This document shows, one piece after another, positions 2,570-25,332 of a DNA stretch of 64,000 nucleotides. The translations under genes and the position numbers were made by a program. The first letter of the stretch is position 1. Each line of letters begins with the position of its first letter. The notes beneath the pieces were generated by a model. That model had not been told where the DNA came from and did not search any database. It worked only from the letters and a program-made list of their open reading frames with translations. The DNA lies in contig JAKJDL010000001.1 of NCBI GenBank assembly GCA_022705945.1, forward strand, positions 227,582-291,581. The letters are read 5' to 3'. Origin of the DNA: Candidatus Omnitrophota bacterium. GTDB lineage: Bacteria > Omnitrophota > Omnitrophia > Omnitrophales > Aquincolibacteriaceae.

Positions 2570-3657
2570 TTATTTTTTTAGTTTTTGAATAATCGCCTGA
2601 CCCATCTCTCGCGTTCCGACAGCGGTAGGATCGTTGCGGTCAGCCTTCATGTCGTAAGTAACGTCTTTACCTTCCCGAATGACTTCGGCGACCGCTTTTT
2701 CAAGCCGGTCGGCGGCTTCGGTCTCTCCAAGGTGACGGAGCATCAGGACGCCCGACAGAATGACGGCCGTCGGGTTCAGCTTGTTCTGTCCCTTGTATTT
2801 CGGGGCAGAGCCGTGCGTCGCCTCAAAGAGCGCGCCGTTTGTTCCGATATTGGCGCCGGGCGCGACGCCGAGCCCCCCGACGAGTCCCGCGCAAAGGTCG
2901 GAGATGATATCTCCGTAAAGGTTCGGGAGAACAAGCACGTCGTAAAGTTCCGGCTTTTGGACGAGCTGCATACACATATTGTCGACAATCCGGTCCTCGA
3001 ACGCAATGTCGGGATACTGCTTGGCCACTTCGCGGGAAACTTCGAGGAAAAGGCCGTCTGTGAACTTCATGATGTTGGCCTTGTGGACCGCGGTCACTTT
3101 TTTGCGGCCGTATTTCCGGGCATAGTCGAACGCGAATTTAACGATGCGCTCGGTGCCGGCCACCGAGATCGGCTTGATGCTGACCCCGGAATCGGAGCGG
3201 ATCTTCCGTTTCGAAAGTTTTTCAATCTCGCCGATCAGCGCGAGAGCTCCGGCCGTTCCTTTTTGGAACTCGATCCCCGCGTAAAGATCCTCCGTGTTCT
3301 CACGGACAATGACAAGATCGATGTTTTTATAACGGGAGCGCACCCCTTCGTAGGATTTGCACGGACGAAGGCAGGCGTAGAGGTCGAGCTCCTTCCTGAG
3401 CGCGACGTTCACGGACCGGAACCCGGTGCCGACGGGCGTGGTAATCGGCGCTTTGATGGCGATCTTATTCTTCCGTATTGATTCGATCACCCGGTCAGGA
3501 AGCGGCGTTCCTTCCGCTTCCATGACATCCACTCCGGCGGTCTGGATGTCCCATTCAAATTTGACTCCGGTGGCTTCAAGGCACAACCTGGCGGCTTCGG
3601 CCAGTTCCGGACCGACACCATCGCCCGGGATCAATGTCACACGGTAGGATTTCATCG
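2570..3657 (-). CDS. icd: NADP-dependent isocitrate dehydrogenase (isocitrate/isopropylmalate DH family).
   Basis: [17 protein letters not shown]..., [12 protein letters not shown] and [19 protein letters not shown] are signatures of prokaryotic IDH. A GGAG RBS precedes the MKSYRV start. It is co-directional with mdh and acnA, forming a TCA operon. Confidence 0.85.
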
Positions 3658-3772
3658 TAACTCCTCGCTTAAAAAGGTTATTCGTTCCATGAGGGCGTTG
3701 CAGGAGGCTGACTCTTCGGCTAGAATACGATCCTGCCCGCAACAAAGCTCACTGAAAGAACCCGTATTTTAT

Positions 3773-4561
3773 ATGAATAACGCCGAAATTAAAAGAACGC
3801 TCTTGGAAGCGATCGCAAAGGCCGGGAAGACCGTCCGGGCCGCTTTCGGGAAGGAACAGCGCATCACCAAGAAAGGCGAGTTTAATCTCGTGACCGAGAT
3901 CGACAAAGCCGCCGAAAGAACAGCTCTTGCCGTTATCCGGAAAAAGTTCCCAAAACATTCGATTCTTGCGGAAGAATCCCCCGAGGTGAAGGGTTCGGAC
4001 GGCTGTTGGATCATCGATCCGATCGACGGCACCACCAATTTCGCCCACGGTTTCCCGATCGTGTCCGTTTCGATCGCCTTTGAGAGCGAAGGCCGGCTGA
4101 AAATGGGTGCCGTGTTCGACCCGACTCGCGATGAGCTTTTCTTCGCGGAACGGGGAAAAGGGGCTTTCCTGAACGGAAAATGCGTCCGAGTATCGAGAAC
4201 AAAAAAACTTGTGGATTCGCTGGTCGTTACCGGGTTCCCTTACGACCGGAAGAAGAACCCGGACGCTTACCTCGCAATGCTCCGAGCATTCCTCACTAGA
4301 GTGCAATGCATCCGGCGGACAGGATCGGCCGCTATCGATCTTTGTTATGTCGCTATGGGAAGATTCGACGGTTACTATGAAATGAAGCTGAACCCGTGGG
4401 ATAAGGCGGCGGGAATGCTGATGGTAGAAGAGGCGGGCGGCCGGTTGACGGATTTCAAGGGGCAACTGCTCGGTTTATCGTCCGTTCAGAATTTGGCGAC
4501 AAACGGCTTGATCCACAGGGAAATGCTTTCGGCGCTCAGGCCTTTTAAAGGGCTGAAATAG
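3773..4561 (+). CDS. suhB: Inositol monophosphatase family protein (SuhB-like).
   Basis: EIDKAAE, WIIDPIDGTTNFAHG and IRRTGSAAIDLCYVAMGRFDGYYE motifs. The start is at MNNAEIK (atg 3773). Confidence 0.85.
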   Translation: MNNAEIKRTLLEAIAKAGKTVRAAFGKEQRITKKGEFNLVTEIDKAAERTALAVIRKKFPKHSILAEESPEVKGSDGCWIIDPIDGTTNFAHGFPIVSVSIAFESEGRLKMGAVFDPTRDELFFAERGKGAFLNGKCVRVSRTKKLVDSLVVTGFPYDRKKNPDAYLAMLRAFLTRVQCIRRTGSAAIDLCYVAMGRFDGYYEMKLNPWDKAAGMLMVEEAGGRLTDFKGQLLGLSSVQNLATNGLIHREMLSALRPFKGLK

Positions 4562-4814
4562 TTTTCAGCTTTTTTTCATGTTCATTCTGTTTGAATTGAC
4601 GGCCGAACCTTATGACCAAAAAGAAAAAACTTCTAAAAAACCCCAAAACCCGCGGCACCTGGGCCATTAATCCAAAAACGCGGGTCAAACCTTCCCGTAA
4701 AGTCTATTCCCGGAAGAGAAATTCCTCTAAAAACGGTTGGCCGGAAGATTAACCCCAACAAAAATCCGACTTTGTCCTGTGAATCAGGACAGATTTTGTT
4801 CGGGATTCCAAAAC

Positions 4815-4850
4815 AAAAACGCCCCGTCCGGAGACGGGGCGTTTTAAAAA
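4815..4850. terminator. Bidirectional rho-independent terminator: GCCCCGTC-loop-GACGGGGC, flanked by an A-run and a T-run.
   Basis: aaaaacGCCCCGTCcggaGACGGGGCgtttt. It serves the minus-strand gene ending at 4870 and possibly suhB. Confidence 0.7.
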
Positions 4851-4869
4851 ACAACTTCCGGGCTTCTGC

Positions 4870-5199
4870 TTATTTCCCAGTAAGATCAACCGGGCTGGGG
4901 ATATCAATATCCACAGGGATCGGGAAGGTAACCAAATGGACGGCACCGAGGAACGTGGTGACCGTGCTATCGATCAGGCCCTGGCCAACACCTTGCCAAA
5001 CATTCTTTCCTTCCGTGGAATAATCATTCGGCGTGGAGAAAATCTTCGTCCAACCAAGAACAGTATTGGTCAGACCATACGCCAGTTTTCCACCGGTCTT
5101 CTCGCCATAGTTCTTCCCATCGGCCCACGGACTCGCCGCGAATGCCGCAGGAACAAGAACCATGGAAAACACTATCGCCAAACTGATAATTTTCTTCAT
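4870..5199 (-). CDS. Small secreted protein, TIGR04073-like (exosortase-system-associated family).
   Basis: Signal peptide MKKIISLAIVFSMVLVPAAFA, then KLAYGLTNTVLGW...GVGQGLIDSTVTTFLGAVHLVTFPIP. This resembles the KLGRGxxNxxTGW...TFPxP pattern I recall for TIGR04073. An AGGAGG RBS is present. Confidence 0.55.
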   Translation of the reverse strand: MKKIISLAIVFSMVLVPAAFAASPWADGKNYGEKTGGKLAYGLTNTVLGWTKIFSTPNDYSTEGKNVWQGVGQGLIDSTVTTFLGAVHLVTFPIPVDIDIPSPVDLTGK

Positions 5200-5371
5200 T
5201 GTTTTTCCTCCTTGGTTTTAAAGCCCCATTTTTTAACAGGGTGATCACCGTTTGTATATTGCCACAATCGATCCTTACCGACAACAAGATAATACTTGGA
5301 AATTTATCGACGCCTCTTCGATCTTCTTGACTCTTTTTTTCGTCCGCTTGCCCGCCCGCTTATCCCAAGTT

Positions 5372-6445
5372 ATGATACGCGCCATGATATCCCTTCGATC
5401 ATTTCCGATGAAAGCTTTCCGTATCCGGCTTCTCTCGTGGTACCGCAAAGAAAAAAGGCTTCTTCCCTGGCGCAAAACCAGAAACCCCTACAAAATATGG
5501 GTCTCCGAGATCATGCTCCAGCAAACCCAAGTCGCTACCGTCATCCCCTACTACCGGCGATGGGTCAAAAACCTTCCCACGCTCCGTTCTTTGGCCGGGG
5601 CTCCCACAGGAAAGGTTCTCCGACTATGGGAAGGTCTCGGCTATTACCGGAGAGCGCGTTTTTTGCACGAAGCCGCAAAAAAGGTTGTGCGAATCCATGG
5701 GGGCAAAATACCGCAGGAAGCTTCCTTGCTGGAAAAACTTCCCGGGATCGGCCGCTACACGGCGGGAGCCATTGCCAGCATCGCCTTCGGTGAAAAAACG
5801 CCTGTTTTGGACGGTAACGTGATCCGGGTCCTGACCCGTATTTTCGGTATCCGGCAGAGCGTCGATCGGGCCGGAACGGTAATGCGGCTTTGGAGTCTGG
5901 CGGGAAAGGTCCTGGAGAAAAGTTTTCCCGGTGATTTTAACCAGGCGATGATGGAGCTTGGAGCAACGGTTTGTTTTCCTCAAAATCCGGAGTGCCGCGT
6001 CTGTCCCGTCCGCTCCCTTTGCAAAGCTCATCGGATAAAAAAAGAAATGTTCTTCCCCGTCAAAACCCGCAGGGAAGTTTACGAAGATGTAACGATGTTC
6101 GCGGCCGTATTATTGCAGGATTCACATGAGAAGGTTTTTCTGCAGAAACAACCCGGAGGGCATTGGTGGGCGGGCTTATGGACTTTCCCTTTTTATAACT
6201 CGCTCCAAAAACTTCGGGAACTGCACGGAAAAAACGGCATTCGTCTCATCGGTCAAATCCGCCATAGTGTCACCCGCTTCAGAATCAACCTGAAAATATG
6301 GCAAAAAACCGTCCCCGCCAGAAACTTGAACAGAGCGCGGGGCGGGCGGTGGGTCAATATCAACAACCTGGGAAGAATCCCCCTCCCCGCACCTCATCGG
6401 AAAATTGCGAGGCTTATCAATTCGCTTTCAGAATCGGGGAGATAA
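5372..6445 (+). CDS. mutY: A/G-specific adenine DNA glycosylase MutY.
   Basis: HhH-GPD motifs IWVSEIMLQQTQV and LPGIGRYTAGAIASIAF, and the FeS cluster loop CFPQNPECRVCPVRSLC. A C-terminal NUDIX-like domain is present. The start at 5372 is in-frame within the longer ORF. Confidence 0.85.
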   Translation: MIRAMISLRSFPMKAFRIRLLSWYRKEKRLLPWRKTRNPYKIWVSEIMLQQTQVATVIPYYRRWVKNLPTLRSLAGAPTGKVLRLWEGLGYYRRARFLHEAAKKVVRIHGGKIPQEASLLEKLPGIGRYTAGAIASIAFGEKTPVLDGNVIRVLTRIFGIRQSVDRAGTVMRLWSLAGKVLEKSFPGDFNQAMMELGATVCFPQNPECRVCPVRSLCKAHRIKKEMFFPVKTRREVYEDVTMFAAVLLQDSHEKVFLQKQPGGHWWAGLWTFPFYNSLQKLRELHGKNGIRLIGQIRHSVTRFRINLKIWQKTVPARNLNRARGGRWVNINNLGRIPLPAPHRKIARLINSLSESGR

Positions 6446-11394: not shown

Positions 11395-12912
11395 TTATTT
11401 TGAAAAACTTTCACTGCTCCAGCTTGAAAGAACTTCAGCCAAAAGCCGGACACCGAAGCCGGTGGCGCCTTTGGGGCAATCATACCGGTTCTTGCCGAGA
11501 TAAGCGGTCCCCGCGATGTCAAGATGAACCCACGGCGTCTTGACCGGAACGAATTCTTTCAGAAACATGGTCGCCGTGATCGTGCCCGCGTAACCGTCTC
11601 CCGTATTATTGATATCCGAGTGATTTCCCTTGATCGCATCCGCATAATCGTCCCAGAGGGGCAGTTGCCAACAACGTTCTCCTGTCTTTTCCCCCGCCTC
11701 GCGGACCGCATCGATCAGCTTTTGATCGTTTCCGAGGATTGCGCTGGTTTTATCACCAAAGGTAAGGTGGCATAGCCCGGTCAACGTAGCCAGGTCGATG
11801 ATGGCATCAGGCTTGTATTCCTTACAATAAGAGAGCGCATCCGCGAGGATCAGCCGGCCTTCGGCGTCCGTATTGATCACTTCAACGGTTTTCCCGTTAT
11901 ACATTTTGATAATGTCGCCCGGACGCTGGGGATCATTCGCGACGTTGTTCTCAACACAAGGAGCGAGACCGACAACATGAAGCGGAAGCTTCAGGTCAGC
12001 CACAAGGCCCATGGTTACAATCACGGCGATCGCGCCCGATTTGTCGAATTTCATTTCTTCCATGCCTTTTGGCGGCTTGATCGAGATCCCGCCCGTATCA
12101 AAAGTGACTCCTTTCCCGACGACGCAGACAGTTCCGTTTTCCTTATACTGTTCCCCGTGCTCCAGAATGATCAAAGCCGGGGGTGTAATGCTGCCCCGGT
12201 TCACGGCCAGAATGCCGTTCATCCCGAGTTTTTTAAGCTCCGCAAGGCCGAGGACTTTGCACCGGAGCCCCTTTTCTTTGGCCAGCATTCTGGATTCTTC
12301 CGCCAAACGCGGCGGATTTATGACGTTGGCGGGCTCGTTATTCAGATCACGGGCCTTGATCACCGCCCGGGCGATCTTTTCCGCGCGCGAAACAACGGGT
12401 TTCAGCTCCGCGGCATCTTTTTTATCCACGAAAGCCAGCTCGATCACATCGGGAAATTTGGGAAGTTCAGCCTTCCCGGTTGTCTTGTAGCGCAGGAACC
12501 GGTAAGCCGCAAGATTCATCGTCTCAACGAAAATCGGGGTGGCTTCTTTTGCCTCGAGACTGTCCGAAAGAAACGTATCCAAAACCACGCGGACCTTATT
12601 GGCTTTTTTCACGCTCGCTATTTCGACAATCCTTCCGGCAATCTTTCGCAGAACCGCCGGCTTCAGGTCTTTTTTCTCACCCAGCCCTAAAACGATCACC
12701 TCGGACGCGAGACGGTTTGACGGATGAAACAGCGTGAAAGAATCCTGGGCTTTGCCCGTAAAACGTTCTTTTTTTATGGCGGCTTCGAAAACTTTGGCAA
12801 ACAAAGGTTCTATTTTTTTGATAGGGTTAAGATTTTTCTCTCCCTTGAAGAACCCCGTGAAGAGAATATCCGCTTTTGTGCTGCCTTTTATAGGAACTAA
12901 AACCGTTTTCAT
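11395..12912 (-). CDS. pepA: Leucyl (cytosol) aminopeptidase, M17 family.
   Basis: M17 signature NTDAEGRLILADAL, and the metal ligands DxxK...DxE context. Confidence 0.9.
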   Translation of the reverse strand: MKTVLVPIKGSTKADILFTGFFKGEKNLNPIKKIEPLFAKVFEAAIKKERFTGKAQDSFTLFHPSNRLASEVIVLGLGEKKDLKPAVLRKIAGRIVEIASVKKANKVRVVLDTFLSDSLEAKEATPIFVETMNLAAYRFLRYKTTGKAELPKFPDVIELAFVDKKDAAELKPVVSRAEKIARAVIKARDLNNEPANVINPPRLAEESRMLAKEKGLRCKVLGLAELKKLGMNGILAVNRGSITPPALIILEHGEQYKENGTVCVVGKGVTFDTGGISIKPPKGMEEMKFDKSGAIAVIVTMGLVADLKLPLHVVGLAPCVENNVANDPQRPGDIIKMYNGKTVEVINTDAEGRLILADALSYCKEYKPDAIIDLATLTGLCHLTFGDKTSAILGNDQKLIDAVREAGEKTGERCWQLPLWDDYADAIKGNHSDINNTGDGYAGTITATMFLKEFVPVKTPWVHLDIAGTAYLGKNRYDCPKGATGFGVRLLAEVLSSWSSESFSK

Positions 12913-13421: not shown

Positions 13422-13898
13422 TTAATGCCCCGCCCTGTTCAGCGCGATATTAACGAGCCGGTCGACATGCCTGATCTTTCCGTGCTCGCGAGGAAGATTG
13501 AAATAACTGACCCGCTTAAATTTTTTCTCTTTTTCTTTCACTTGTGCGAACAGGGATTTCAGGTGCTCAGCCTTCAGTTTGTAAATCCCCGAAAGCTGCT
13601 TGGCCACAAGCTCGCTGTCCGTAAAATAGTCGATCTCATCGGCTCCTGTCTCGCATGCTACGGTCATGGCCCGGATCACCGCGGTATATTCGGCCACATT
13701 GTTCGTCGTCTCCCCAATCAATTCTCCGTGCTCAGCAATCTTTCCGCCGTCAGGTCCCAGGATCAGAAAACCAATAGCGGCAGGACCGGGATTCCCCCGC
13801 GCGCCGCCATCGGAGTAAATGGTCAGCTTCCGGGAGGATAACGCTCGACGGGAGGAGGGTGTTGAATTCACGCGATTTTGTTTCGCTCCATCCGTCAT
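13422..13898 (-). CDS. rnhA: Ribonuclease HI.
   Basis: IYSDGGARGNPGPAAIGF...TNNVAEYTAVIRAM...YFTDSELV carries the DEDD RNase H catalytic motifs. Confidence 0.8.
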   Translation of the reverse strand: MTDGAKQNRVNSTPSSRRALSSRKLTIYSDGGARGNPGPAAIGFLILGPDGGKIAEHGELIGETTNNVAEYTAVIRAMTVACETGADEIDYFTDSELVAKQLSGIYKLKAEHLKSLFAQVKEKEKKFKRVSYFNLPREHGKIRHVDRLVNIALNRAGH

Positions 13899-21151: not shown

Positions 21152-22837
21152 TTACATCACCCGGTTCGTTTTTGTCTTGAACAAAATCCCGAAAGCTTCG
21201 GCCATTAGTAGGCAGGCGAGGCCCAAAAGCGTCACGGCGGTTATCGCCATCGGATCCCAAACGATCCGGCGCAAAAGGATCATGGTTTTAAACCACGGTT
21301 TGAGAATAAAATAAAGCGACGCGACGGCCACCACGGTCATAAAAACAGAAGGGAGAAGCGTGATCATTATATTTTTTCCCTTTTTCAAGAGCCAGAGGCT
21401 GACTCCCAAAAGCGCCAGCGCGGCAAGCAGCTGATTGCTTGACCCAAAGACCATCCAGAACATTTTCCACGCCGGAATGACGTTGCCCGCCCCGTCCGTC
21501 ATCTTGCCTGTCACAAAAACAGCCGGAAGGATCAGCGTTATAAAAGCCGCCGCATAAGGGCTCCATTTCCCCCGCCACCCCGTGAGCTCCTCGAAAATAT
21601 AACGCCCGAGCCTTGTCGCAACATCGAGCGTGTCATAAACAAAAGTGGCAAACGCCAGAAGCGCAAAATTGAGCGCAAGCTCCCGCGAAATGCCGAGAGA
21701 GTTTAAAAACAGCCCGACCCCGTTCGCGAAAATGAGGTTGGGATCGCGCAACTCGCCGGCTTGTGCTGTCGTCAAAACCAGCACCGTCGCAAGGGCAATG
21801 ACCGCGACAAAACTTTCGAGAAGAAGACCGCCGTATCCAATCAACTTGATATCCGATTCCTTCGAGATCTGCTTCGAAGTCGTTCCGGAAGAAACAAGAG
21901 CGTGAAAACCGGAACAGGCGCCGCAGGCGACAGTCGTGAAAAGGAGCGGAAGGAGCGGGAATCCGGACGGGCTTAACCAGCCTGTGAATGCCGGATAATG
22001 GACGGTATAACCCCCGATAATGCTTCCCGCCAGTATCCCGATAAGACTGACTCCTGCCAACAAGGTCAAAAAAAATCCTCCGAGGTAGCCTCGCGGCTGC
22101 AGAAGCATCCACATGGGGATCACGGCCGCGACAAAACAGTATCCCAGAAGAAGAAAATTCCAGCTCGTCTTGAGGTCCGCTCCGAAAAGGCTCGGGAGAA
22201 CGAACGGAAATTTCGGGCCGAGCCAGATCGCCAGAAAAATCAGCGGGATGAAAATCACGGTGGTAACGGCCAGGGGGGCTTTGAAAACCCTGAGGATGAT
22301 CCCCATCGCCACGGCCAAACCGAGATACATCATGGATGAGGAAGCGACACCGGGACCGCGAACGGGGTCCGCAAATGTCCCCGCTGTGATATCCATGAAA
22401 GTCGTGATGATATAGATGAGAGAAAACCAGAGAAAAAGAAGAAAAAGGATAAACGCCTTACGGCTCATGTTCTCGCGGATCACCTCGGCAATGGAACGGC
22501 CCTGATGACGGACCGAGACGGCCACCGTAAAAAAATCATGCACCCCGCCGATCAGGATTCCCCCCAGAAGGATCCAGAGAAGTGTCGGTAGCCAACCGAA
22601 CCAGAGCCCCGCAAGGATCGGTCCGACAATGGGTCCTGCCGCCGCGATTGCGGAAAAATGCTGCCCGAGAAGATACCATTTTCCGGCAGGAACATAGTCA
22701 ACATCGTCCCGCTTCGCGTGCGCGGGAGTCGGCCGGTCATCTCTCAGATTTAAAAATTTCGCGAGAAAGGTCCCGTAAACAAAATACCCCGCAAGCAGGG
22801 TTCCTCCGGAGATCAGTATTAAAAAAAGAAGACTCAT
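21152..22837 (-). CDS. cstA: Carbon starvation protein CstA (peptide/pyruvate transporter family).
   Basis: 561-aa polytopic membrane protein with a CstA-type N-terminus MSLLFLILISGGTLLAGYFVYGTFLAKF and a conserved internal region. Confidence 0.8.
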   Translation of the reverse strand: MSLLFLILISGGTLLAGYFVYGTFLAKFLNLRDDRPTPAHAKRDDVDYVPAGKWYLLGQHFSAIAAAGPIVGPILAGLWFGWLPTLLWILLGGILIGGVHDFFTVAVSVRHQGRSIAEVIRENMSRKAFILFLLFLWFSLIYIITTFMDITAGTFADPVRGPGVASSSMMYLGLAVAMGIILRVFKAPLAVTTVIFIPLIFLAIWLGPKFPFVLPSLFGADLKTSWNFLLLGYCFVAAVIPMWMLLQPRGYLGGFFLTLLAGVSLIGILAGSIIGGYTVHYPAFTGWLSPSGFPLLPLLFTTVACGACSGFHALVSSGTTSKQISKESDIKLIGYGGLLLESFVAVIALATVLVLTTAQAGELRDPNLIFANGVGLFLNSLGISRELALNFALLAFATFVYDTLDVATRLGRYIFEELTGWRGKWSPYAAAFITLILPAVFVTGKMTDGAGNVIPAWKMFWMVFGSSNQLLAALALLGVSLWLLKKGKNIMITLLPSVFMTVVAVASLYFILKPWFKTMILLRRIVWDPMAITAVTLLGLACLLMAEAFGILFKTKTNRVM

Positions 22838-23230
22838 GAGGTCGGTCTCAAATAAGGTTACGATCCAGCGTTGCTCTTTCTCCTGATCGGCAAATGCGGT
22901 CCATTACAACCTGTTTCAAGCTTGCCCGAAAAACAAATTTGCCAAAACAGCCCGCCCATGACTGCTCATGTTTAGCAGAAGCCCCTGCCGGGCAAAAAAA
23001 CAACGGCGGGGAACCCCCTTGTCCCAATAAACAAAAATGAGTTTCCAGCGGACGATAAGCGAACCCTACACCCCATCGAAATACCGCTGCTTACAAAAAT
23101 TCACCGCAACAACGGTATGGGTTGGCTTATTGCCCTTGACGCCATATTCCCAAAGCCAACAAATCGAAAGAACAAACAAATCCGGGGCCTCACTACAACC
23201 ATGTTATTTAGTTATCCCAATCACACTTCG

Positions 23231-24034
23231 CTACCCTAACTGATTTAAGATGTCTATAGATGTTCTTGCAATATCCATCATTATCTCTCGCATCTCATTT
23301 TCTCTCCAAGGGTTACATCTAGCATATATAGAAGCGGCTTGAAGCATTATTGACGAATTTTTATGCCCTATAAAAATGTTCTTACAATAATTGCGGTTAA
23401 TCGGCATACAATAATTTGCCGCCGTTACTCTATCAATTCTATTCATTGCGCCTGAATCAGATCTAATCTCAACAAAAGAACCATCCGGCCTAAATGCTTG
23501 AACTGTTTCGGTTGCAAAGTTAGACCCCTGCAAGAATACCGCGCACGGAAAATGATATTCATCAAGCATAAAATTTCTGATTTCACTAATGTTCTTATAC
23601 ACTCTCTCAATGGCATTTCCCGCTACCATTAAATCTTGATCTTTATTCTTTCCGACAAGAATTCCCGCCTTGATGTTTTCCACATCTTTGCCCTGATACT
23701 TTGCTTCGCTAACCAAAACAACTCTCCACCGTTTGTCTTTATCTTGAACTTCAATAATTCCTCCGTCAGGTTTTATTTTTGACTCTTTAACAAAAAGGGT
23801 TTTCCCCAATCTCCTGTCTATTGAGTTTAGCTTTTTATTTATTTCCTGTTTGCCGATGAATTTCCTGAATCTAAACCGGTACTTTTGATAATCTTTTTTC
23901 AGAGCATTGAATACACTCATGCCCACACGATGAACAGACACGTCATGCGCCTGAGCATCTTTACCAAAAATGCCGCTTGCACCCCCCGACAAGCTGTGCT
24001 GTTTAGTTAGTCGCTTTGCCTGTCCTTTACTCAT
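23231..24034 (-). CDS. Type II restriction endonuclease, EcoRI/RsrI family.
   Basis: Collinear with R.EcoRI as I recall it. LTKQHSLSGGASGIFGKDAQAHD matches LTEQHKLSQGVIGIFGDYAKAHD. KPDGGIIEV...VVLVSEAKYQGKD is the PD...EAK catalytic motif. GKNKDQDLMVAGNAIERVYKNISEIRNFML is also shared. Confidence 0.9.
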   Translation of the reverse strand: MSKGQAKRLTKQHSLSGGASGIFGKDAQAHDVSVHRVGMSVFNALKKDYQKYRFRFRKFIGKQEINKKLNSIDRRLGKTLFVKESKIKPDGGIIEVQDKDKRWRVVLVSEAKYQGKDVENIKAGILVGKNKDQDLMVAGNAIERVYKNISEIRNFMLDEYHFPCAVFLQGSNFATETVQAFRPDGSFVEIRSDSGAMNRIDRVTAANYCMPINRNYCKNIFIGHKNSSIMLQAASIYARCNPWRENEMREIMMDIARTSIDILNQLG

Positions 24035-25010
24035 TGCGATGCTCCATGATAGAGGTGCTGTGTAATGATCGCCGATTCACCAAATTAATTTCTTTTAGCA
24101 CCATGTCAATATTGGCATCTTTCATTAGACTATATTTTGGCAAAAACATATTTGCTTCAATCTGCTTAATGTGTTTATCAAGATAACCATGCAGTTTTTT
24201 GTCTGAATCCACCAAGAGTGAATGTCGCCGTTCTTCAATGCAAACACGTCCTGTGGTTCCAGAACCGGCAAAAAAGTCGAGGACTATTGAACCTTCAAAA
24301 GATAAGGCTTTAACAAATCGCCTGATCAGCTCGGCCGGCTTTTGTGTAAGATGACCAACTCTTTCAGAGGAATTCCCATTTAATCTCCCTATTTCCCAAA
24401 CATTCGTCGGATTCTTTCCCTTATCAACACTTTCAGGATTAAGGCGCTTGTCTTTTTTGTACATCATTTTTGTTGCCTCATCAAACGGCACTCTAACGGA
24501 ATCTAAATCAAAATAGTATTTACTTGTCTTAGAAAGCCATACTGCTTCTTCATGCCTGTTGGCAAAAAAACGGTGAGCGCTCATTCCATTTTTATAGTAC
24601 CAGATAATCAAATTAGTGAATCGTAAATCTGTTTTATGGCGGGTGTAGTGAAGGATTTCAAGGAGATCTCCTTTCTTCAAATCCTGATATTGAAAACCGC
24701 CAAAAATGACACAGTTACCCGAATCGGATAATATGCGATGGATTTGATTCAACCATCCTTTTGCCCAATCAAGATAGTTGTTGAAACTATCCCACTCATC
24801 CAAGTCAAGATTATATGGCGGGTCAATCAGAATTAATTGAACTGACGAGTCGGGCAATGCTTTCAAAAAATCAACTGCATCTTGGATAAAAACACCATGA
24901 ACCGTATGTGGCGGCGCAATTCGTTTAACCATCGAGTTGTGGTGAATCCCGTTCCTTTTCAACCGATTCATTGCCATATGCCCGCTATTAAAATGTGATT
25001 TATTAGCCAT
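24027..25010 (-). CDS. N6-adenine DNA methyltransferase, beta class (M.RsrI-like). Cognate methyltransferase of the EcoRI-family endonuclease.
   Basis: Motif IV LILIDPPYNL precedes motif I LDFFAGSGTTG, which gives beta-class order. There is an 8-nt overlap with the downstream R gene. Confidence 0.85.
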   Translation of the reverse strand: MANKSHFNSGHMAMNRLKRNGIHHNSMVKRIAPPHTVHGVFIQDAVDFLKALPDSSVQLILIDPPYNLDLDEWDSFNNYLDWAKGWLNQIHRILSDSGNCVIFGGFQYQDLKKGDLLEILHYTRHKTDLRFTNLIIWYYKNGMSAHRFFANRHEEAVWLSKTSKYYFDLDSVRVPFDEATKMMYKKDKRLNPESVDKGKNPTNVWEIGRLNGNSSERVGHLTQKPAELIRRFVKALSFEGSIVLDFFAGSGTTGRVCIEERRHSLLVDSDKKLHGYLDKHIKQIEANMFLPKYSLMKDANIDMVLKEINLVNRRSLHSTSIMEHRNE

Positions 25011-25145
25011 CTAAGTTTTTTGCCCGTAAATCTTTAGTCGCATTTTTTCAATCTCTTCTTGAGCGTCACCGTATTGAGCATAAAACTTATCGTTCTTTGC
25101 CCGTCTTGCGTTCTTAAGATTTTTGATTGAAGGTTTTCTAGCCAT
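25011..25145 (-). CDS. 44-aa basic ORF translationally coupled to the methyltransferase gene: its TAG stop directly abuts the M gene ATG.
   Basis: MARKPSIKNLKNARRAKNDKFYAQYGDAQEEIEKMRLKIYGQKT. It lies in the low-GC islet. Its stop is at 25011-25013 and the methyltransferase start is at 25008-25010. Confidence 0.3.
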   Translation of the reverse strand: MARKPSIKNLKNARRAKNDKFYAQYGDAQEEIEKMRLKIYGQKT

Positions 25146-25242
25146 AATTCATTTAATCCAATAAATAGCACGGGATTCGCGCCCGCAATTAGTGTGAACG
25201 CCTTCCTCGACCCTCCGACGAGGAGGGTTCACCCCAAAAAAC

Positions 25243-25332
25243 TGGCGGAGGGAGTAGGATTCGAACCTACGAGACCCTTACGGGCCTAACGGTTTTCAAG
25301 ACCGCCGCATTCAACCGCTCTGCCATCCCTCC
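25243..25332 (-). tRNA. tRNA-Ser, anticodon TGA. Class II tRNA with a long variable arm.
   Basis: GGAGGGATGGCAGAGCGGTTGAATGC...GGTCTTGAAAACC...GGTTCGAATCCTACTCCCTCCGCCA. The anticodon loop is CT-TGA-AA, with T-loop TTCGAATCC and an encoded CCA. Confidence 0.85.

Follow-up and report, generated by a model that had tools for sequence, protein, structure and literature searches.

Within a 64,000-nucleotide (nt) stretch of the genome of a Candidatus Omnitrophota bacterium (GenBank assembly GCA_022705945.1, contig JAKJDL010000001.1, positions 227,582 to 291,581 of the forward strand; the whole of this stretch is called the window below, and coordinates are counted from its first letter), a Type II restriction-modification (R-M) cassette lies between a tRNA-Ser(UGA) gene and cstA. 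It consists of a methyltransferase gene (M) followed by an endonuclease gene (R), and is preceded by a short open reading frame (ORF) that begins as an M.EcoRI-family gene. We consider it highly probable that the cassette is a functional Type IIP operon of the EcoRI/RsrI kind, acquired horizontally as a minimal unit and replacing an M.EcoRI-family gene. The locus is composed of the following features, with lengths of proteins given in amino acids (aa) and base composition as guanine plus cytosine (GC) fraction.

21152-22837, minus strand: cstA (Pfam CstA).
22838-22956, minus strand: upstream region of cstA, host DNA (84% nt identity with the sister lineage L026).
23050-23225, minus strand: conserved non-coding element native to the locus, outside the cassette, with a terminator-like hairpin at 23117-23102.
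23226-23230, minus strand: right cassette junction (cassette homology ends at 23229; host-locus homology from 23225).
23231-24034, minus strand: R gene, EcoRI-family Type IIP endonuclease, 267 aa (Pfam, EcoRI crystal chains).
24027-25010, minus strand: M gene, M.RsrI-like beta-class N6-adenine DNA methyltransferase, 327 aa (Pfam, 1eg2).
25011-25047, minus strand: cassette leader 5' of M (alignment to L019).
25011-25145, minus strand: apparently chimeric ORF of 44 aa (34 relic codons plus 10 leader codons).
25045-25145, minus strand: relic, codons 1-34 of an M.EcoRI-family (PF13651) gene (Pfam, BLASTP, tblastn, nt alignment).
25056-25039, minus strand: sequence of the relic-cassette junction, GAGATTGAAAAAATGCGA.
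25146-25242, minus strand: spacer between the tRNA gene and the relic ORF, 97 nt, GC 0.49, with a terminator-like hairpin at 25187-25169.
25243-25332, minus strand: tRNA-Ser(UGA), CCA encoded (ARAGORN; Rfam tRNA 59.9 bits).

The two genes of the cassette are arranged M then R and overlap by 8 nt (ATGAGTAA), as an earlier reading of the DNA alone (the sequence-only reading) had stated; the ATG of R sits within ...AAT GAG TAA, the end of M. Their combined GC content of 0.391, compared with 0.486 for the window, 0.533 for cstA and 0.553 for tadA, makes the cassette the lowest-GC stretch of 1780 bp in the 64 kb, about 3 standard deviations under the mean of windows outside the cassette, and the AT richness previously judged by eye was thus confirmed by computation. 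The tRNA-Ser(UGA) gene lies upstream, 232 nt from the start of M, and its 3' end, correctly placed beside the cassette in the same reading, faces the cassette and forms the proximal edge of a variable region. The interval 22838-25242, which had been described as one low-GC islet, does hold the cassette, but its part from 22838 to 23225 is host-type, with the upstream region of cstA and the conserved non-coding element; the low-GC foreign block extends from about 23226 to 25145-25161.

The R protein matches the Pfam EcoRI family (PF02963) over profile positions 1-250 of 257, with an E-value of 2e-128 and 427 bits (cut-off 22), EcoRI crystal chains over residues 2-264 (E=1e-91) and the PADLOC model REase_II (6e-117). 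When mapped to EcoRI numbering by means of the crystal-chain alignment and a 13-sequence alignment, R was found to keep D91, E111, K113, Q115, M137, G140, N141, A142, E144, R145, R200 and R203. The catalytic residues D91, E111 and K113 are invariant in the 13-sequence alignment (PDGG/SEAK, as against PDGG/AEAK in EcoRI), and the recognition segments LMVAGNAIER and NRIDR, which hold the extended chain M137-A142 as well as E144, R145 and R200, are kept, with a sole change, A138 to V, that is typical of the whole subfamily. One of the EcoRI chains matched (PDB 2oxv) departs from the wild type exactly at residue 138. The earlier description of an R.EcoRI-like endonuclease with a PD..EAK motif therefore stands, and it extends to the retention of both catalytic and recognition residues. 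Homologues of R are numerous (3328 at E<=1e-5), and 267-aa proteins with 75-92% identity to it were found in cyanobacteria, Acidobacteriota, Chloroflexota, Methylomirabilis, a Heimdallarchaeota metagenome-assembled genome (MAG) and others. An identical protein (100%) is encoded on 7 independent contigs from different samples, and the NCBI annotation of the MAG Candidatus Omnitrophica bacterium ADurb.Bin277 (GCA_002069035.1) names it "Type-2 restriction enzyme EcoRI". This MAG occurs in anaerobic-digester samples, among them JGI 3300010346 and SRR29782965. The system is thus already named EcoRI in public annotation and is routine as an R-M system.

The M protein belongs to the Pfam family N6_N4_Mtase (PF01555; E=4e-53, 181 bits, cut-off 26.7) and to the PADLOC model MTase_II (1e-104). 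Its residues 1-286 align with residues 1-289 of M.RsrI (1eg2; E=9e-101), and the DPPY motif (63-66) precedes the S-adenosylmethionine (AdoMet)-binding motif FFAGSG (246-251, within DFFAGSGTT, 245-253), which is the permuted order of the beta class. Both the match to 1eg2 and this motif order agree with the previous assignment of M to the M.RsrI rather than the M.EcoRI type. The similarity to M.RsrI covers the region between motifs VIII and X, and conservation between the two proteins is best between the catalytic and AdoMet motifs. Enzymatic activity of R and M is predicted from these features.

Since the contact residues of EcoRI are kept in R and M matches M.RsrI in the stretch between the motifs, GAATTC is the best candidate for the recognition site, and recognition of it by both proteins is likely. 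GAATTC occurs 18 times in the window, compared with 21.2 expected from a fourth-order Markov model and 16.4 from base composition. The comparison of observed and expected counts that had been proposed earlier thus reveals no avoidance on the scale of the 64-kb window, as expected from a recent acquisition. Of the two host sites cited as examples in that proposal, the one at 11551 is exact and the one given as 13861 is really at 13864; the 18 sites would need the protection that had been argued for. Two of the sites are inside the cassette (23659 and 24370). It is very unlikely that the system is inactive or that its site departs from canonical GAATTC, being for instance a relaxed site or a related one with an AATT core, although the members of the 267-aa subfamily of R differ from EcoRI in having Y or F at position H114 and V at A138 (Y113 and V137 in the numbering of R). 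H114Y and A138T/V are relaxed-specificity mutations of EcoRI. The absence of GAATTC avoidance (18 against the Markov value of 21.2) also favors such an explanation, but would be expected if the acquisition were recent. Moreover, every direct base-contact residue of EcoRI is invariant, the match between M and M.RsrI (E=9e-101 over 1-286) is best conserved in the inter-motif stretch, and both genes are under strong purifying selection. As the changes at positions 114 and 138 are subfamily-wide and under purifying selection, they give no sign of decay; the exact fidelity or specificity of R could differ from that of EcoRI.

Some other hexamers were missing from the window. GTGCAC, the ApaLI site, was absent from the 64 kb (0 observed, with 3.5 expected from the Markov model and 14.5 from base composition), and the CTAG-containing palindromes ACTAGT and CCTAGG, together with AGTACT, were likewise absent. 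These absences may reflect other restriction pressures or a general depletion of CTAG.

The same pair of genes, M of 327 aa and R of 267 aa, was found at L019/L020, in Synechococcus PCC 6312 (L021) and at L023/L024 (comparison loci are given as L numbers), and in the four contexts examined it was flanked by unrelated housekeeping genes, without mobility genes. The nt identity of these cassettes to that of the window is 92% for L019/L020, 80% for Synechococcus PCC 6312 and 77% for L023, and the L019/L020 pair has the identical 8-nt overlap between M and R. The homology common to the cassettes in blastn comparisons covers only 25021-23229 of the window, and a finer alignment to L019, in which the leader has a 14-nt indel before the ATG, extends the unit to 25047. 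The unit common to other genomes is therefore formed by the two ORFs and a leader of about 37 nt (25047-23229, 1.8 kb, GC 0.39); the cassette is foreign, as had been claimed, but the foreign unit is not the whole 2.4-kb gap. Its GC content is 0.38-0.39 whatever the host, with flanks at 0.43-0.50. The organism carrying L019 is unrelated to the host, as indicated by its YchF protein, which is only 37% identical to that of the host. The ratios of nonsynonymous to synonymous divergence (dN/dS) relative to L019 are 0.12 for R and 0.08 for M, and both genes are under purifying selection. The near-equal synonymous divergences (dS of 0.31 and 0.33, respectively) suggest that R and M were inherited or travelled together, as one unit under selection.

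No carrier phage of the cassette was found, apart from a distant EcoRI-like gene of a Helicobacter phage, and no strain of the same species lacking it was found, the cassette being present on every contig whose CstA or R is identical. A more distant counterpart is present on the 5.9-kb mobilizable plasmid NZ_CP044480.1 of Acinetobacter schindleri, in which both M and R match (71% nt identity over 45% of the cassette) features annotated as "DNA methyltransferase" and "EcoRI family type II restriction endonuclease". That copy is plasmid-borne and far more diverged, whereas the copy in the window is chromosomal and has no mobility genes. At L019, a gene encoding a 59-aa HTH_3 protein (3786-3965) ends 8 nt before the start of homology with the window. 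It may encode a controller (C) protein with no counterpart in the window copy, and no ORF with a helix-turn-helix domain that could be such a controller was found in 22838-25242.

Between the tRNA gene and M lies the 44-aa ORF, a truncated M.EcoRI-family gene that was missing from the islet inventory of the sequence-only reading. It ends in a TAG codon immediately followed by the ATG of M, and it was called as a gene by JGI in L003. The match to the Pfam EcoRI_methylase profile is sub-threshold (positions 1-28 of 345, E=0.0019), and a BLASTP comparison with authentic M.EcoRI, taken from plasmid pU90-3, aligned residues 1-36 with residues 1-36 without gaps, at 42% identity and 67% positives (E=4e-8). 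The relic was the single match (E=3e-4) in a tblastn search of the whole window with M.EcoRI. The ORF does not contain a complete PF13651 catalytic domain, and the window holds no further M.EcoRI-like sequence; a C-terminal remnant of an M.EcoRI-type gene beyond R was looked for in the tblastn search of the whole window, and none was found. An exhaustive HMMER search identified closer relatives with 60-83% identity, all of which were N-terminal fragments of PF13651 genes, and a word-indexed search with the 44-aa ORF matched only the ORF itself. A word-indexed search with a 64-aa fragment as the query gave 85 matches, none of more than 112 aa.

The borders of the relic and the cassette could be placed by nt alignment. 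The nt sequence of the ORF, together with the 16 nt before its ATG (25146-25161), whose homologue lies 5' of an M.EcoRI-family gene, shows about 86% identity to the M.EcoRI-family genes of L054 and L061, and this similarity ends at ...GAGATTGAAAA (window 25045). The homology of the cassette leader to L019 starts at AAAAATGCGA (window 25047), and the left junction, after codon 34 of the relic gene, is marked by a 4-nt microhomology, AAAA (25045-25047). At the right junction, cassette homology stops at 23229, 2 nt past the stop codon of R, and homology to the conserved element begins at 23225. The GC content of the relic (0.37) is as low as that of the cassette, which indicates that the relic is itself foreign. 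The 44-aa ORF thus appears to be a chimera, in which an M.EcoRI-family stump is joined to the leader of the cassette, and the coexistence of this M.EcoRI-type stump with an M of the M.RsrI type shows that both methyltransferase lineages have left traces at the locus.

The 44-aa ORF might instead be a functional small upstream ORF or regulator, such as a leader peptide bringing ribosomes to the start of M and thereby standing in for a C protein. It is intact, with an ATG and with a TAG abutting the start of M, every contig of the species has it unchanged (100% conservation), and the nearest relative of the cassette, at L019, has the HTH_3 gene upstream, where the window has none. However, codons 1-34 clearly encode the N-terminal end of a methyltransferase family whose members have 326 aa, the composite ORF was found only in this species, and the other short homologues are pseudogenes that are frameshifted or interrupted by insertion sequences (IS). 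We therefore regard a dedicated regulatory role as doubtful; exaptation of the relic as a translational leader would be compatible with its origin as a methyltransferase stump.

More complete genes of the relic type adjoin a gene for a DUF262/GmrSD_N(-HNH) nuclease, which matches a PADLOC Type II restriction endonuclease model (E=4e-86). Such arrangements of relic-subfamily genes with the nuclease (model REase_II PDLC03418) were observed at L058 (4001-6262), L061 (3589-5681, with an intact methyltransferase gene at 3589-4703 and its DUF262-HNH partner at 4713-5681) and L055 (5001-7204), and one relic-type gene shares 56% identity with M.EcoRI over residues 114-323. Genes of this subfamily are strikingly often frameshifted or split by IS21 (the latter in L056/L057).

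The gene order tadA, tRNA-Ser(UGA), gap, cstA, PilZ gene and response regulator gene is kept in related Omnitrophota, as established by comparison of 10 genome and 26 metagenome loci with CstA proteins 71-94% identical. The gap between the tRNA gene and cstA is small in L011, L014 and L016 (157, 256 and 289 bp, respectively); elsewhere, it holds 1.2-5.2 kb of unrelated cargo, including genes for a SIMPL protein, a YdjM-like protein, an S9-type hydrolase and an AbiEi/nucleotidyltransferase pair with a phosphoesterase. In L013, the same site (3051-5204) is occupied by genes for an AbiEi-like regulator, an AbiEii/NTP_transf_8-like nucleotidyltransferase and a metallophosphoesterase. The closest relative, L026 (CstA 94% and tRNA 99% identical), has genes for a FitA-type ribbon-helix-helix antitoxin and a PIN toxin (VapBC-type; L026 142-809) right after the CCA of the tRNA, instead of an R-M system. 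The homology of this contig to the window stops exactly at 25243, such that the spacer at 25146-25242 is not common to the two, and it resumes only at 22956. The 3' flank of tRNA-Ser(UGA) is therefore a recombination hot spot.

On a model built from the sequence-only reading, this site had received a single low-GC islet across the gap between the tRNA gene and cstA, inserted by an integrase at the 3' end of tRNA-Ser, with the integrase since lost. The island setting proved correct in one respect, as the site is a variable hot spot beside a tRNA gene and is empty in some relatives, but neither an attachment (att) repeat nor an integrase accompanies it. The position just 3' of the tRNA, the low GC content and the way in which the cargo of the site varies among relatives would all agree with such an insertion. 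In addition, direct repeats of the tRNA-Ser 3' half are present in the gap in relatives, at L015 (52 nt, score 87), L011/L031 (51 nt), L014 and L016, which implies that integrative elements have used this tRNA. Nevertheless, Smith-Waterman comparison of both strands detected no repeat of the tRNA 3' end in 22838-25242, as the scores were 17-20, where shuffled sequences averaged 19.5 and reached at most 27, and a separate repeat search at the locus yielded nothing convincing. This negative result leaves classic island integration at a tRNA gene, and integrase-mediated insertion in the window, unsupported. No integrase or recombinase (Phage_integrase) was found among the called genes within 10 kb on either side of the cassette, in agreement with the absence already reported. 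The foreign block is also composite, with two layers joined at a microhomology, the segment 22838-23225 is host-type DNA, and the unit common to other genomes ends at ORF boundaries. Insertion of the whole gap as one integrase-borne islet is thus decidedly improbable.

In the relatives, whose gaps are empty or small, the second copy of the tRNA-Ser 3' half measures 51-80 nt and lies just upstream of cstA (L015 6869-6921, L031 4913-4963). The copy in L031 is nearer to the tRNA variant of the window than to the tRNA of L031 itself, which is what one would expect if an element from another lineage had left an att scar. The conserved element at 23050-23225 was considered as a decayed tRNA half, that is, an att scar, and this was rejected: its alignments to tRNA-Ser are weak (scores of 20-36), and the Rfam tRNA model misses it even at E<=10. 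It is single-copy in the window, and homologues of about 80-170 nt occur upstream of cstA in several Omnitrophota (L030 4887-4962, for L010/L030; L047 775-929; L043 185-305). No Rfam family matched it, and it could be a leader or regulatory RNA of cstA, or the terminator of an upstream unit. Several contigs end at the locus: those of L002, L004 and L026 in or at tRNA-Ser, and that of L008 inside R (window position of about 23282). These assembly breaks fit strain-level heterogeneity in digester communities.

The relic and the cassette suggest a history in two layers. An M.EcoRI-family R-M gene, or a solitary methylase, would first have been inserted 3' of tRNA-Ser. A cassette with an M.RsrI-type methyltransferase and an R.EcoRI-type endonuclease would then have replaced everything from codon 35 on, by illegitimate recombination; the AAAA at the left junction and the position of the right junction, 2-5 nt after the stop codon of R, point to this mechanism rather than to integrase action. 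The stump may now provide M with its ribosome-binding context, and perhaps with a promoter. M would be translated first and R after it, and as the ATG of R is buried in the last codons of M, translation of R probably depends on, and lags behind, that of M. The M.RsrI-like M would most likely methylate N6 of the second adenine in GAATTC on host DNA, and the EcoRI-like homodimeric PD..(E)xK nuclease would cut unmethylated G^AATTC on incoming DNA.

Several observations, in addition to the subfamily-wide changes at positions 114 and 138 of R, weigh against this account of a functional operon that displaced a resident gene. A minus-strand scan 5' of M, in the spacer between the tRNA gene and M, detected no sigma-70-like promoter, and a terminator-like hairpin follows the tRNA, ahead of the M-R operon. 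The homology of the leader to L019 above 25021 consists of a 10-nt exact match and about 70% identity, and is suggestive, not decisive. Furthermore, relic and cassette could have become fused before the transfer, within a donor genome, and have entered the host as one piece.

A narrower interpretation of the replacement is that the stump records, as a natural fossil, the displacement of one R-M system by another whose AATT-core specificity was identical or overlapping. With GAATTC already protected by a resident M.EcoRI-family methylase, an EcoRI-like nuclease could have become established without killing the host, and the resident gene would have become dispensable once the M.RsrI-like methylase had come in. 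We consider this scenario rather unlikely. If it is true, the locus would preserve a trace of two unrelated methyltransferase lineages, both serving EcoRI-family nucleases, competing isospecifically or swapping partners.

The cassette combines features of the two systems that it resembles. R is homologous over its whole length to the endonuclease of the plasmid-borne EcoRI system (58% identity, with catalytic and recognition residues kept), although it belongs to a compact 267-aa subfamily with a shorter C-terminus. The EcoRI system has the order R then M and a PF13651 methyltransferase, whereas the window has M then R and an unrelated PF01555 methyltransferase; the PF13651 type, the partner of EcoRI, is represented in the window only by the 34-codon stump. 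The RsrI system of Cereibacter (Rhodobacter) sphaeroides, which also recognizes GAATTC and was compared here through M only, likewise combines an EcoRI-homologous endonuclease with a beta-class DPPY methyltransferase. R-M complexes are reportedly mobile and selfish, and are said to insert into or replace R-M genes, in the accounts of Kobayashi and co-workers (Kusano et al. 1995 PNAS; Furuta et al. 2010 NAR). The cassette is like such units in being a minimal two-gene unit with homology ending at the ORF borders, in occupying a variable region, and in lying atop a wrecked R-M gene. Unlike those cases, it presents no long target duplication, inversion or transposon context, and has a 4-nt microhomology junction.

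The additional point of interest at this locus is the relic, with the nt-precise junctions. The finding is of modest value, as a clean example of the movement of a minimal R-M cassette, a unit that ends a few nt from its ORFs and has no mobility genes. Depending on the lineage of the candidate phylum Omnitrophota, the hot spot flanking the tRNA gene is occupied by R-M, toxin-antitoxin or AbiE-type modules. In genetic work on these organisms, or in their methylomes, N6-methyladenine (m6A) at GAATTC and EcoRI-type restriction would be expected.

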